The notes under the pieces were generated by a model. That model was not told the DNA's origin, made no database searches, and was given only the letters and a program-made list of their open reading frames with translations. From assembly GCA_013115125.1 (NCBI GenBank), contig JABANN010000384.1, positions 1-33,743 on the forward strand: a stretch of 33,743 nt of DNA. The letters run 5' to 3'. The position numbers and the translations under genes are program-made. The DNA is from Perkinsus olseni (taxonomy: Eukaryota). Below are positions 18,000 through 23,385 of this stretch, piece by piece; positions within the stretch are counted from its first letter, which is position 1; the number at the start of each line of letters is the position of its first letter.

Positions 18000-19215
18000 A
18001 TAACGAAGCAGCAGCAGCAGTGGATTAAGCAGCAGCAGGCGACGCTGGCAGCAATCACGACAAGCATCGGACGATGGGCGACATGAAGCGGACGACGATA
18101 AGGACAGCTGGTGGGTTACACAGTAACCCAAGGACTTCATCACGATGATGATCAAACATACCCGAGACGTGAAGAGTCAGCGTAGTTGGAAACATCATAT
18201 CCGACGCGAGAGGCCGTCAAGCGAGACGACCAGGTCAAGCACGGATAATAAGACGGCGCCAAAGGATACGCCAAAACTTAGAGAACGCCTTCAGGCAGTT
18301 GTTGTTGTTGTTGTTATCAGGGCGGCGGCGGCGGCGTGAGTAGCGGCAAGGATGCTTGGGGAGAACCTCTTGGATCTTGCCACTAGTTGATCATACAGTT
18401 CTTGATGATGTTTATGGGGAGGAGAAGAAAATACAGATAGTTGTTAAGACGAATAAGGAGATGACGATAGTGATGACGAGAACAGCAGCAGCAGCAGCAG
18501 CAGTAGCAACGATGATGATAGCGAAGACAGTTGTAGTACAGAAGTCGAAGTAGACAGTACTCACCAAACCAGCAGCATCGCTTCGACGATGCCTGAGTAG
18601 ATCGTGACGATCAGAAGCTGGCGAGGCGAGCTAAGATTTAGCAATGGAGTGGTATCAGTAGTAGTAAATCTGCACGCATGCACAGAATAAAAGGACTCAT
18701 ATTCGCAGCAATAGTACGTTGAGAATGCTGACCAGCCATGACAGTGCCTCGCCTAGAGTTTTATCATTATAGCTGCTATTACGGCCAATTATCATTATTT
18801 TTCCACACTCCTCGTTGCAGTAATCAATGAAAAGGATACGGCACTGGGCGGTAATAACAACAACAGCAGCAGCGGTGACGACGACGTTAATGACAACTAC
18901 TACTACGACAACAACAACAACTACATCAACTTCGCGATGATCAAAGCGGCTGATAGGACGGCGAGTACAAGCCGAGAATAGCAACAGTAGCAGGACGACA
19001 ATATTGGGATAGTGATATTATTACACGTTAATGGAGCTGCTGTCATGTTCCAAGACGAACCGAGCGCATCCAAATTTACTGTCACCACCATCAGACATGA
19101 CTATTTTATCGTATAATAATAGGGGGATAAGCATCAGGGATTGAGTGCTCGCATCGTCAACGAAGACGATGATAATGATGATCAGGAATGAAGGGGAGCT
19201 GCTACTGCTGCTACG
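18000..19215. repeat. Low-complexity intergenic/UTR tract with short trinucleotide microsatellites (GCA, GTT, GCG, ACA, GAT)
   Basis: Examples are (GTT)n(GCG)n at ~18298-18336, (GCA)n at ~18484-18503 and the ACA/ACT runs at ~18855-18925. No convincing ORF. Confidence 0.6.
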
Positions 19216-19245: not shown

Positions 19246-21256
19246 TTAGAAGTACTGGCAACCAGTATGCTTCATCACTTGTCGAGCGCAGTATCTGAAA
19301 TGATGGCCAATGCTACCCGCAAGCGCGGACAGGTCTGCGTACATGCCCTCCTCGACACCATCCATAATCATTTGTCTCGTGATCGAGTGCCATGCATTGG
19401 ACCGAGAACCTGCATAGGGAGGCACCAATGAGCCCAACCAGCAAACCTCGCGTGGAGCAACAACTCGAGGGAAGGGAAAAGCTCTCCGGGACACATAAAC
19501 TTGTAACTCAATTACCGTCATCAGGAAGCACCTCGCTTGAATCGTCGTCACTCAGGCTCGAGAGTGAGCTCTCGACCGGGGATGGAACACTACGTGGGGT
19601 TAGATCGCGGGCCAGTAACCTACCGCCAAGACCCCGTACAGACCATGCAGGCATCAGCAGCCCTTCTTACCTGGCGTAGATCGCAGCAATGAAGCCACCG
19701 ACAAATCCGTCTCCAGCGCCGATGTCGTCAGAGATGGCCAGGGGATCGAGATCCCGAACGGTGTGAGCGAACGCATCGCAAGTATCCGTCAGATTGCTAC
19801 AACATATAACCGGGTCGGGACCTGCGGTAAAAAAATCACCCCCTTCCTCGACGGCCGATACGCCCACCTTGAGTCATGATGGCCCAAGCCCCGGGCTTCA
19901 TGAAAGCTGACACAGCCTCAGCGATCTCACGCGGACTCATTTTAGATATTCCCGCGATACCTGACCAAGATGAAGATAATGCCAACGCGGATGGGAGCTG
20001 TAGAGTGCTCACCGAGATGCTCGGCGAACGCCGTGAACTCCACCTCGTTGCCGAAAACAACGTCACAAGCATGTTTTGCCATGTACGTCTGCAGAGAGTG
20101 GGAGTGCTGTGGGGACGCGAGGGAGGACTAGACTTACGAAATCATCGTTCTTGCAGGCCCAGGCAGCACTGAGACCAGCAAACAACTTCGTGTAACCAGA
20201 TTTGATCTGGGGATGGTTAGGAATGTATCTAACAGCAACATGCTTGCGACTCCGACTCCACAGGAGTTGGTGGAAGTATGGTACGTACTCTCTGCATGCA
20301 TATCCGTCCCCACAAGCGTAAAACGCAGTCGTATACAATATCCTGCAATCGGTGGGAATGCCCCTATCAGGGCCGGCTCGGAAATCTGGAGCCACTCCCA
20401 AATCCGTGATCATCGTCCCTGAAAAGAAGGAAAGAAAATTACAAATCTTAGCGGAGCGAAGTTCCTTCTACGTTTCTTATCCTTGAGAAGCGCACAGCAC
20501 TTTCCAGTGCGGCCGCCAGGGAACACCTACCAACAGCCAGGGGCGTTTCCGAGGAGCCCGCCGACTGAGGTTGAGGTTGATTACCTCAAAGTCCGTCTCA
20601 AGGCCAGCCTCGGCGCAGGCTTCTCGCAATACGTTGCCATATTCATCATCGCCGACACTACCGACGATCCGAACCGACGTGTTGGCGAAGCTCACATCCT
20701 GAGAAACACTAGCGCTCGCCCAGGTGATCGATTTGATGAGCACTCCTTACATTGTATTCCGGATCGGTCTCGTGGCGGTCGAACCACCACTTAACGCCTC
20801 TCAAGGAGTTCATCGCCTGCCCTCCCGCAATGCGCTGAGATCGAGCAACAAAGATACTCCACGGTTCCCACAGACGACCGAAAGCAGCCTTACATGCACT
20901 GTCAATTCCCCGTCTCCCAACATTCGCGCAAACAGCTTCTTGTCTTCGTCACTTCCTGAATAACAAAGAACAATCATAAGTAAAAGACGGATGGAGAACG
21001 GGAAATTGCGGGAAAAAATAATACCATCCGTGAGCCTCTGAGTGTTGACTTTCAAACCGAAGCCATTGGCATCATCAACAGTAGCCACCAAATCCAATAT
21101 AGGGTGGTCGTATGATACAACGCTGAAGCTCTCAGCAGCAACACCCAAGGGACAAGGACAAGGACACGCAGCGTTGGTCGTCATAGGAGTCGAAGTCCTT
21201 GCCAATAACGATGTTGATGATGACACATCGTCGGTGGCCGCGGCAGATTCAGCCAT
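19246..21256 (-). CDS. Adenosine kinase-like PfkB/ribokinase-family protein, multi-exon (isoform using proximal first exon 21025-21256)
   Basis: Spliced exons 21025-21256, 20894-20955, 20751-20834, 20585-20698, 20472-20526, 20418 onward. They give HPILDL, GGQAMNS, VGSVGDDEYG, TGKCCALL..K.RTMITDLG, FGNEVE (NxxE), IMTQGPDP, DDIGAGDGFVGGF (PfkB anion hole) and a C-terminal QVMKHTGCQYF*. Confidence 0.9.
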
Positions 21257-21546
21257 ACTACGGAGGGGCTTAGGAAAGAAGGGCTGACACCGCGATAGTA
21301 GTGAAACCAGTAATAATAATGAGAAACAATCCCTATTGAAAAGTTGCCATTTTTAGGTCATCAAGCAGCTCTACGTGTCAGCCCGACAACCAGCCCCTAC
21401 CATAGCAGACCAGAATTACCGCGCGCCACGAAATTCACACCCTGTCCCTTGGGTGATGCTGCTGCTCATATTCCAATGCCGGGCTGACACGAGAGCCCCC
21501 CACAAACGACAGCGAAAATTCCGAAACGAGCCTCGCGCCACCCCAC

Positions 21547-21805
21547 CCTTCGCAAGCCGCTGCGTCGCCGGTTCAAGTCCATACGTCTCGAAGTCGTCGA
21601 TGGTCGCCACGAGGTCCAGCAGAGGGTGGCAGAGCCCCACAATGCTGGCGAACTCGTTAGACAGACCATCAAGGTGCTGCCGGGCCGACGAAGCATCCTC
21701 CGACTCATCGAAGGTGCTCAAGGTGGCGGACGACGAATAATCGTGGTCACACGACCCGTCGGCCACGACGACGGCTGGACTTGACGACGAGGCGACTATC
21801 GCCAT
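21547..21805 (-). CDS. Alternative (distal) first coding exon of the adenosine kinase-like gene
   Basis: 86 codons + 1 nt ending SIVGLCHPLLDLVATIDDFETYGLEPATQRLAKG|GT. Homologous to the proximal exon (SVVSYDHPILDLVATVDDANGFGLKVNTQRLTDG|GT), with the same phase-1 donor position. Confidence 0.78.
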
Positions 21806-21927
21806 ATGGGTAAAGGAGGAAAATTGCTACAGGAAAGAACATGAAAGATCATGCGGGGCTTGCAACGATGTGAGAGGAGCTGAACGCAAAAATAATAGGA
21901 GGACTTTGTCAAATAGTAAAATAGTAA

Positions 21928-22442
21928 TCAACCGAGATTGTGTTCTCGTTTAAGCCGTTCGATCTCTTCTTTCTGTCCCTCGGCATCAAGTTTCTTCTGG
22001 AGGCGAGTCGGGCTATAGTACAGGCATACCAGGTATCGACCTGATCACCATTATCAATACCACACCAATCGCAACTCCTGATCAATGACGTCCTACCGGC
22101 AACATTGAAGCCACTAAGGTGATCGACTGCGTTCTTAGCGTCATAGATGTCATCGTAAATAACGAAGGCCGTACCCTGCAACGATCACGGGGTGCCGAGT
22201 CGTCAAAAACACCGCTGCTGCTGTTGTTTGTATTACCTTCGTGCCGGGAGCATTCCCCTTCCTTATCTGCCGGATCGACCCGAACTTGCCAAAGACATCA
22301 TACAGTTCATCTGGCTTGATCTTGTACGGTAGATTCCGTACCTGCAGGAGAAGCGCTAAGATACGCCCTAGGTTGAAGCTCGACCTACATAGATGATCCT
22401 GTTCACCTCGGGAGGTAGCCGTACTCGACCGCGAGCAGCCAT
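21928..22442 (-). CDS. SF3B6: Pre-mRNA branch site protein p14 (SF3b subunit 6), 4 exons, 116 aa
   Basis: Exons 22389-22442, 22237-22341, 22097-22175 and 21928-22040 give [88 protein letters not shown]..., the characteristic p14 RRM. Confidence 0.97.
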
Positions 22443-23385
22443 CGATGACAAGCGATAAAATGCTGCTGAAAAGTCATCAACGACCCCGCACCTCCAACCA
22501 AAGGCTAAGTAAGGATGTCCAAGATGCTCACGCTTTTATCTACACGCACAACGTATTCCCAGATAGGAGAGGGAGGGTCGACTGACCACGCAACAGGCAG
22601 GCCCAGGCACCGGTACTACGGCGGCGACCGAGATCTGCGTCATGCGGTAGATGACATCACCATCAAATTACGAGGAGTCCAGCAAGGGTAGCCGGCCTCA
22701 GTCGATCATCTATTCACCATAGCATGGACGAAGTCAGGTCCAGTGGTTAGAATGTAAGAATGTTTGGGGAAGCGAGGACCTCCTAAGGAGCCACCAGCAG
22801 GGGACTTGATCTCAATGAAAGGCGGTGAATGGGCACTCGAGTGGTAGTAGCTTTCACCAAGCAACTTTCGCAGGCTTGTCGTACAACCGATATGAGGCAT
22901 CAGCAGCAGCATCAGGCGATACCCTCACCCCTCGAGGGATGACATCGAGTAGAGGGGCATCGAGGATGGGTGGTAGACGTGGATGAGGGAGGGGCTTCCC
23001 AGCCACCAGACCGAAGGCTGCCGTAGTAACAGCAGTAGTATCATGCGGTTAGACTACCACTGTTGGTTGTGGCAAAGTGGAGGGTCGGGTGCCCACCAAA
23101 ACTGAGGGGGCAGCACCGTGGCAGCTAGGGTCAAGACGGGAAGCGGGGAAATGTTGGTAGTAGTATCATTATTATCGTCAATGGTAACAACAGTATATCA
23201 GAGAAGAAGAGACAGTCTTGTTGAAGTGGCTGTTGACAGAGCAGTGGCAACAGGCACCGGAAAGCAGACAAACACGAGTCGGTACAGCAAGGGGCGAAGA
23301 GTGGTCAGTCATCTTTGCAGATACCTGAAACATCGACCAACTCATCTACATAAACAGCAGCCACCATCGTCTTACAGAGACCACT

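Follow-up and report, generated by a model that had tools for sequence, protein, structure and literature searches.

Homologous first coding exons, each with its own spliced-leader acceptor, in a predicted adenosine kinase gene of Perkinsus olseni

Mutually exclusive exons that arose by tandem duplication and are chosen by competing RNA pairings are known from Drosophila Dscam, and variable first-exon arrays with one promoter per exon and no spliced leader are known from the protocadherin and UGT1A clusters. In mammalian adenosine kinase, the alternative parts of the isoforms are short leaders outside the fold. The two mammalian isoforms, ADK-L and ADK-S, differ in their first exons and promoters according to PMC3118340, and PMC3273800 and PMC2904332 describe alternative spliced-leader (SL) trans-splicing that gives N-terminal variants of isoleucyl-tRNA synthetase in Trypanosoma brucei and of sma-9 in C. 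elegans. Here we analyzed a gene of the pfkB/adenosine kinase type on the minus strand of a contig from the clam parasite and alveolate Perkinsus olseni (assembly GCA_013115125.1, contig JABANN010000384.1, positions 1–33,743; this whole contig of 33,743 nucleotides is referred to as the window), which carries two homologous first coding exons, 1a and 1b. The locus brings arrangements of known kinds together: in an alveolate, its first coding exons are paralogues of each other, and both have an SL acceptor. The best explanation, which we consider probable, is a single gene whose duplicated SL-acceptor first exons yield two proteins.

Comparison with the systems above revealed partial likeness to each of them. 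As with ADK-L and ADK-S, an enzyme of the same family occurs as two proteins that differ only N-terminally through alternative first exons; unlike those of mammals, however, the Perkinsus first exons are paralogues, encode strands b1, b2 and b3, helix a1 and the adenosine-contact motif, and each receive an SL. The choice of an SL acceptor within the gene sets the N-terminus, as is described for T. brucei isoleucyl-tRNA synthetase and C. elegans sma-9, but there the longer form adds or drops sequence, whereas in Perkinsus the upstream choice must cis-splice over the downstream exon and the alternatives are homologous modules of a catalytic fold. Like Dscam, the locus has tandem homologous exons of the same phase, probably one per mRNA, and an intronic element complementary to alternative-exon sequence, the pairing role of which is predicted here; Dscam-type exons are internal, cis-spliced and found in animals, whereas those of Perkinsus are first coding exons in an alveolate and the putatively masked site is a trans-splice acceptor. 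With the protocadherin and UGT1A clusters the locus shares paralogous first exons that are each spliced to shared constant exons, but its array has only two members, each with an SL. By analogy, the nearest parallel within the enzyme family would be the long and short mammalian adenosine kinases, and the nearest mechanistic parallels would be alternative SL trans-splicing and the tandem exons of insects.

The original prediction, made from the letters of the window, had placed exons 1a, 1b and 2, a phase-1 donor after each first exon and a single exon 2 acceptor at this locus, and all of these are present on the minus strand (Table 1). Both first coding exons comprise 3n+1 bases and consequently end in phase 1. 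RNA evidence was taken from assembled contigs of four runs (X1–X4) of four studies, 24 runs being listed with part of the stretch. Twelve introns of the kinase gene, including that between exon 1b and exon 2, were joined with GT..AG ends in all four runs. Exons spliced at these RNA-contig joints reproduced exactly the annotated protein that starts with exon 1b (P0001, 435 residues), and use of the 591-nucleotide (nt) intron 21546–20956 reproduced exactly the one that starts with exon 1a (P0002, 444 residues). This 591-nt intron is unusually long, the other introns of the gene measuring 46–106 nt.

Analysis of the contig ends revealed the SL acceptors. Past position 21828, upstream of exon 1a, nine loose letters were listed in X1, X2 and X3, and the X4 contig overhangs this position by seven letters. 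The contigs of exon 1b cover 21024..21285 and end at AG 21285–21284, the SL acceptor of this exon, with nine identical loose letters in X1, X2 and X4 and an overhang of five letters in X3; the 5′ untranslated region (UTR) of 1b accordingly measures 27 nt (21283–21257). At both first exons, the reverse complement of the loose letters together with the genomic AG equals the last 11 nt of PmaSL1, the 22-nt L-type leader of Perkinsus, in the sequence printed in PMC3101222. This 11-mer from the 3′ end of the SL has 0 matches on both strands of the 33.7-kb contig and must therefore be added in trans. At the level of RNA contigs, the SL is joined in trans at 21826 for 1a and at 21283 for 1b.

These ends modify what had been expected of the two sites. 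A pyrimidine tract followed by AG had been noticed before each ATG; both exist, and that of 1a is an SL acceptor in use, but the proposed 1b site, CCGTAG directly beside the ATG, is not the dominant one, since the contigs put the SL 27 nt upstream, at AG 21285–21284. The proposed choice between cis-splicing from 1a and trans-splicing onto 1b likewise held for one half only: SL addition to 1b and its joint to exon 2 occur in 4/4 runs, but exon 1a is itself SL trans-spliced, and the choice is therefore one between two SL acceptors and not simply one of cis versus trans. As for the junctions themselves, the joint 21025 to 20955 was seen in all four runs, whereas that from exon 1a to exon 2 (21547 to 20955) rests on contig geometry. 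We infer the latter from the 28 letters by which each 1a contig extends past 21546: they are absent from the listed loose ends, and they are mirrored on the exon 2 side of the 1b contigs, which likewise has 28 letters, as two converging paths of an assembly graph would produce. A search with junction peptides of 1a and exon 2 (47–151 residues long) returned three matches, all of which were genomic read-through open reading frames (ORFs) and none of which crossed the junction. Word depths of the 1b and 1a contigs were 2028/772, 81.3/24.4, 32.7/10.8 and 30.3/21, values that do not rank parts of the gene. Depth across the 1a–1b interval (bins 21309–21530) was 0 in X2, X4 and X3, and X1 has a low-depth contig at 21405–21556; the uncovered part amounts to no finding.

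The two first exons are not expected to occur together. We joined the 1a donor to three acceptors upstream of 1b (exon starts 21283, 21269 and 21257) and obtained a premature stop at codon 90, 115 and 111, respectively, which agrees with the earlier statement that splicing 1a into the 1b acceptor gives no full frame. No 1a–1b joint was listed in the contigs of the four runs, in which rare forms are dropped. The SL acceptor of 1b sits downstream of a working cis donor, yet the assembled transcripts contain no cis use of it. Because each copy has its own SL acceptor and its own phase-1 donor to the single exon 2 acceptor, mature mRNAs probably carry 1a or 1b, not both. The fused model FOZ61_007442 (P0005, 514 residues) requires a donor after 21585 within 1a and an acceptor at 21258–21257, and is in frame; its joint was unlisted in the four runs, and we treat it as a probable prediction artefact. 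The same model reads through the 60-nt intron 20229–20288, which is in frame, contains no stop codon and is removed in 4/4 runs, and skips adjoining coding sequence. The fragmented, multi-copy state of the P. olseni assemblies and the odd fused model in one of them could suggest that the exon pair itself is an artefact of assembly or annotation, made from collapsed haplotypes or a mis-joined tandem gene copy. However, the same architecture occurs in independent assemblies of two species, and the RNA contigs of all four runs match the window with 0 other letters, so that such an origin retains almost no probability.

In public records, the isoform pair is already in GenBank, and the bare observation is not new: at locus FOL46_006086, P0002 with exon 1a corresponds to KAF4660576.1 and P0001 with exon 1b to KAF4660575.1. 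The pair is found also in the P. olseni assembly FOZ60, and pairs with consecutive accessions are present at three loci of P. marinus ATCC 50983 (EER05508/09, EER12063/64 and EEQ99264/65). A full-text search found no publication naming both Perkinsus and adenosine kinase, and the literature matches listed for Perkinsus together with mutually exclusive alternative splicing contained nothing on the adenosine kinase gene. The SL acceptors and the predicted hairpin described below are new here, and the isoform pair is undescribed in the literature searched. A metagenome scan with the 1a isoform yielded one weak locus (38% identity over 47 residues), which was not used.

Comparison of the two exons with each other revealed 20/38 identities between their peptides by BLASTP (E = 4e-12). 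Over 40 aligned codons, 20/40 residues and 64/120 bases are the same, and the proportion of differing synonymous sites (pS) is 0.71, which is near saturation, with a corresponding value for nonsynonymous sites (pN) of 0.39. The homology and the near-saturated synonymous sites point to an old duplication and not to chance. The tails from GSDEDKK on (358 residues) are identical within 5/5 isoform pairs, these being the loci of P. olseni and P. marinus with two models; the members of a pair are therefore isoforms, not tandem genes. This annotation of the pair at all five loci bears out the earlier suggestion that both exons are maintained.

Conservation was then compared between species in the core, the last 33 residues before the junction. 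The 1a and 1b cores differ from each other at 15/33 positions (counted by eye), whereas between P. olseni and P. marinus there are three and two differences in the 1a core and 0, 2 and 2 in the 1b core, with one difference between the 1b cores of P. olseni and P. chesapeaki; the common tail differs between P. olseni and P. marinus at 17/358 and 27/358 positions. In the FOZ63 allele of 1a, the 33-residue core is unchanged, and all three differences affect the leader. In read-through ORFs of genomic contigs, similarity collapses directly after the 1a donor. Because the cores are kept across species, similarity ends at the 1a donor and allelic differences are confined to the leader, the sequences indicate that both exons have been under purifying selection since before the split of P. 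olseni and P. marinus. The proposed check in other Perkinsus species thus came out in favor of both cores in P. marinus, but only a 1b-type model was found in P. chesapeaki. The latter would fit the idea that only one isoform matters, the other mRNA being produced from a decaying exon duplicate by way of a cryptic SL acceptor and tolerated as a by-product. We regard this as highly improbable: both exons are open, their folded parts match the remainder of the protein in conservation between species, the allelic differences of FOZ63 leave the 1a core unchanged, 1a and 1b approach saturation at synonymous but not at replacement sites, and both forms are assembled as SL-bearing contigs. Third-position G+C differs strongly between the two exons (0.76 in 1a and 0.49 in 1b), and its value for the common coding part is 0.59.

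Next to the first exons, the identity of the enzyme was analyzed. PF00294 (pfkB) is precomputed for both full proteins, and the single-exon pieces gave only sub-threshold pfkB matches (18.3 and 20.8 bits versus a cut-off of 25.8). Adenosine kinases made up 18/19 of the sequence matches in PDB (best E values 3.5e-21 and 1.2e-20) and all of the Foldseek matches listed to rank 38 (template-modelling score on the target 0.77–0.83). Residues D64, G111, G112, D353, G358 and D359 are invariant in an alignment of 76 relatives; G111 and G112 form the Gly-Gly hinge. PMC12369479 names N-P-L-L-D (N-terminal) and D-T-N-G-A-G-D (C-terminal) as adenosine kinase motifs; the C-terminal phosphate/catalytic motif reads DDIGAGD in the local Perkinsus sequence. 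Taken from these similarities, the gene product is, in all likelihood, an adenosine kinase of the pfkB fold; the name "adenosine kinase" in UniRef is an automatic label. A Ser/Asp-rich insertion precedes the last helix (P0002 ~373–417, from the exons between 19619 and 19343), with a predicted local distance difference test score (pLDDT) below 50 at residues 380–410. It falls between two matched stretches in the alignment to an Anopheles kinase, and a relative that is 44% identical (P0020) has a similar Ser/Asp-rich insertion.

The isoforms (444 and 435 residues) have 358 residues in common and differ in the leader, strands b1–b3 and helix a1. AlphaFold models of the 1a and 1b forms (pLDDT 84 and 86, respectively) contain the same b1, b2, short a1 and b3 after a disordered leader. 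The leaders, predicted to be disordered, are acidic and rich in Ser, Thr and Ala, with nine Asp plus Glu residues in 1a and four in 1b, and one Lys or Arg in each. For plant enzymes, PMC12369479 gives the small domain of ADK2 as residues 17–61 and 120–134 with a hinge at Leu15-Leu16, and in ZmADK3 assigns Asn15 to purine N1, Leu17 to the pocket, Asp19 to ribose O2′/O3′ and Leu41 to a position next to N6 substituents. Consistent with the original prediction that the exchange touches the substrate site, the adenosine-contact motif and the first hinge lie within the exchanged segment, which also includes the beginning of the small (lid) domain.

The contact motif is H-P-L-L-D in 1a and H-P-I-L-D in 1b, and T-Q-R-L is kept in both. 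The Asp of the motif is invariant in 76/76 aligned sequences, and its Pro and Leu are kept; the Ile of 1b at the pocket-Leu position is shared by 3/71 relatives. The largest type-specific differences flank the contacts, with G-L-C in 1a versus S-Y-D in 1b before the His, and F-E-T-Y versus A-N-G-F, respectively, in a1. Since the contact residues barely differ and the flanks do, the swap would affect the leader, the neighborhood of the nucleoside site and the lid in its first half; the 1a and 1b enzymes may differ in kinetics, partners or location. At residue 60 of P0002 and residue 51 of P0001, His takes the place of the purine-N1 Asn, and 10/71 relatives also have His there; this replacement may bear on the substrate preference of the whole Perkinsus clade, not on a difference between the isoforms.

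A repeat scan of the window revealed a 25-nt inverted repeat of 92% complementarity between the 591-nt intron and exon 1b (outer arms in Table 1). Its ungapped score of 20.0 was reached in 0/500 dinucleotide shuffles (mean 9.8, maximum 14.5), and among the 13 inverted pairs of at least 18 nt within 800 nt in the whole window, the outer arms are the only pair of at least 25 nt at 90% or more. Folding of 401 nt of the sense strand (21500–21100) gave a minimum free energy (MFE) of −172.7 kcal/mol, compared with −129.3 ± 5.6 in shuffles (z −7.76; 0/100 as good); the antisense strand folded at −147.3 (z −5.86), so that the sense strand is better by 25 kcal/mol. G-U pairs make up 11/89 of the long-range pairs. 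In a fold of the 931-nt precursor, the outer stem of 24 bp and seven inner helices of 45 bp together form a predicted hairpin of 69 bp. The predicted probability of being paired in this precursor was 1.00 for the AG of the 1b acceptor, 0.00 for that of the exon 2 acceptor and 0.17 for that of the 1a acceptor. A scan of 20800–22000 against Rfam gave one match far below threshold (18.3 versus 49 bits) and no known RNA family. RNAduplex of the intron against exon 1b was tried as a statistic and rejected, as it returned pseudo-duplexes over the whole length (−153.2 versus a shuffle mean of −134.8, with 5/300 and 1/300 shuffles as good, and −152 for other parts of the gene). The 10-nt motif at the 1b acceptor (21281–21290) recurs 200 nt upstream (21481–21490), with an exact complement of the motif located in between (21375–21384). 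Alternative pairings are therefore possible, since either this complement (15 nt, 93%) or the region of the 1a donor could serve as the partner of the upstream copy.

We compared the intronic side of the hairpin with P. marinus-like contigs. The intron block that contains the upstream motif copy is kept as GLSCQPG, GLTCQPG or GLSCQ in their read-through ORFs. In one contig (P0019), the read-through of the intron aligns to 21549–21415 in a frame with a stop, and keeps GL[ST]CQPG, PKGQG and FVARGN with gaps between them; in another (P0018), the same nucleotides are found in a different frame (HPRDR, EFRGAR). The middle conserved block forms the core of the outer arm on the intron side and is readable in three frames across P. 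olseni and the two P. marinus-like contigs. From these alignments, the intronic arm of the hairpin appears conserved in P. marinus. Its exonic partner in the outer stem codes for C-P-L-G; among the leader motifs, C[PS]LG alone is shared by 7/7 1b-type sequences (C-S-L-G in P. chesapeaki).

The inverted repeat might also be a relic of evolution that takes no part in the choice of exon, if the 5′ region of 1b had partly come from an inverted duplication of the nearby intron. This would account for the antisense strand also folding far better than its shuffles, as any inverted repeat at the DNA level would, and the inner-arm partner in the 1b leaders of P. marinus is not conserved as protein. On the other hand, P. 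olseni shares the core of the intronic arm and two adjoining blocks with two P. marinus-like loci that have diverged, although the flanks have indels and frame changes, the advantage of the sense strand is gained via G-U pairs, and the helix lies exactly over the acceptor AG. We hold a relic to be rather unlikely.

A tandem duplication of the first coding exon probably preceded the divergence of P. olseni and P. marinus. In the mechanism that we propose, a precursor with the upstream arm would have its 1b acceptor concealed and its 591-nt intron shortened in effect, favoring the joining of 1a to exon 2; on a precursor without the upstream arm, or with the arm unfolded, the leader would be placed onto 1b. 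The choice would accordingly depend on the accessibility of the 1b acceptor, for which either the hairpin, on a common precursor, or a second transcription start located downstream of the masking arm would be responsible. That the 69-bp pre-mRNA hairpin helps to choose between 1a and 1b is suggested by the folding models, and we put this tentatively, at only a little short of an even chance. The stronger version is doubtful, namely that the conserved hairpin would be the selector, its folded state leading to the SL on 1a and cis-splicing of 1a over the buried 1b, and its open or absent state to the SL on 1b.

Alternatively, the isoform might be decided by two transcription starts, one upstream of 1a and one between 1a and 1b, for which the AU-rich 84-nt loop of the hairpin (21374–21291) is one possible place. 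Short precursors that lack the upstream donor and the masking arm would then receive the SL on 1b, and the hairpin on long precursors would merely block the non-productive splice from 1a to 1b. This is a serious possibility, if distinctly short of even. It is consistent with the first exons and promoters of the mammalian isoforms mentioned above (PMC3118340) and with the lack of a listed 1a–1b joint; moreover, on a long precursor the acceptor would pair once made, because transcription reaches the masking arm first. The contigs, however, show no internal start, because SL trans-splicing removes primary 5′ ends, and the two-start arrangement is compatible with most of the best explanation, from which it differs only in the deciding step.

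Several points weigh against the explanation by one gene with two SL-acceptor first exons and a hairpin between them. X2 and X4 are recorded as RNA, but X1 and X3 are only guessed to be RNA. The contigs are not raw reads, and rare forms (1a-1b-2 or the fused FOZ61_007442), transcript starts and levels cannot be read from them. Only the 3′ half of the SL is visible, 9–11 of its 22 letters, where the contigs stop, and the joint of exon 1a to exon 2 is deduced from contig geometry. P. chesapeaki has a single model, of the 1b type, and the substrate-contact residues (His, Leu/Ile, Asp, Leu) are nearly the same in the two isoforms. The hairpin is a prediction from the P. olseni sequence; its outer arm is partly a CAG/CTG run, and the codons of the inner-arm partner are not kept as protein in the P. 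marinus 1b leaders.

If true, the stronger version, with the hairpin as selector, would amount to an RNA-structure switch between mutually exclusive exons, acting through trans-splicing in an alveolate, and it would provide two adenosine kinases with different lid and substrate-entry strands. In parasites related to Perkinsus, adenosine kinase and other purine salvage enzymes have a central place, so that two conserved versions from one gene hint at a split of labor. The compact, conserved locus makes testable how trans-splice and cis-splice acceptors are told apart and whether trans-splicing serves to diversify proteins, and the predicted masking hairpin offers a concrete handle on acceptor choice.

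Table 1. Features of the kinase locus and its upstream neighbor (positions in the window)
Feature	Positions	Strand	Remarks
Small RRM-domain gene, upstream neighbor	21907..22473	−	Pfam RRM_1 matches; three introns spliced
Exon 1a SL acceptor	21827..21840	−	Pyrimidine tract and AG 21828–21827; contigs end at 21828, then 9 loose letters
5′ UTR of 1a mRNA	21806..21826	−	21 nt; inside 1a contigs (21546..21828) in 4/4 runs
Exon 1a, coding part	21547..21805	−	ATG 21805–21803; 259 bases = 86 codons + 1 base; exact match to KAF4660576.1
Exon 1a product			Disordered leader, then kinase strands b1–b3; AlphaFold (AF2) model: residues 1–48 pLDDT <50, strands 53–58, 62–68, 82–84
Exon 1a donor	21541..21546	−	GT 21546–21545, phase 1; start of 591-nt intron ending at 20956
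Conserved intron block with first copy of motif GTGTCAGCCC, which recurs at the 1b acceptor	21477..21493	−	Direct repeat D10, inverted repeat I3
Predicted outer 5′ arm	21440..21464	−	Intron, 82 nt downstream of 1a donor
Predicted inner 5′ arm	21375..21429	−	Intron; seven helices, 45 bp with 21290–21234 in MFE fold
Predicted inner 3′ arm	21234..21290	−	1b SL acceptor, whole 5′ UTR, AUG and first codons
Exon 1b, coding part	21025..21256	−	ATG 21256–21254; 232 bases = 77 codons + 1 base; exact match to KAF4660575.1
Exon 1b product			AF2 model: residues 1–37 pLDDT <50, strands 45–49, 53–59, 73–75
Predicted outer 3′ arm	21133..21157	−	Inside exon 1b, codons for ..PCPLGVAA..
Exon 1b donor	GT 21024–21023	−	Phase 1
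Intron between exons 1b and 2	20956..21024	−	69 nt; joint 20954->21024 in 4/4 runs
Exon 2, common to both isoforms	20894..20955	−	Acceptor AG 20957–20956; starts helix a2 of small domain
Eleventh shared intron, exon 2/exon 3	20835–20893	−	
Exons 3–13, common coding	19246..20834	−	Ten introns of 46–106 nt between; stop codon ends at 19246; joints in 4/4 runs

RNA contigs of the neighboring RRM-domain gene stop at 21912–21926, about 85–100 nt ahead of the 1a SL acceptor of the kinase gene. In X2, X4 and X3, a contig of this gene departs from the stretch at 22237 with 255 other letters, which suggests an alternative continuation. Elsewhere in the window, long runs of GTT/AAC-type trinucleotides are located at 18290–18930, downstream of the kinase gene, and a poly-C/poly-G palindrome lies at the contig end (33600–33657).

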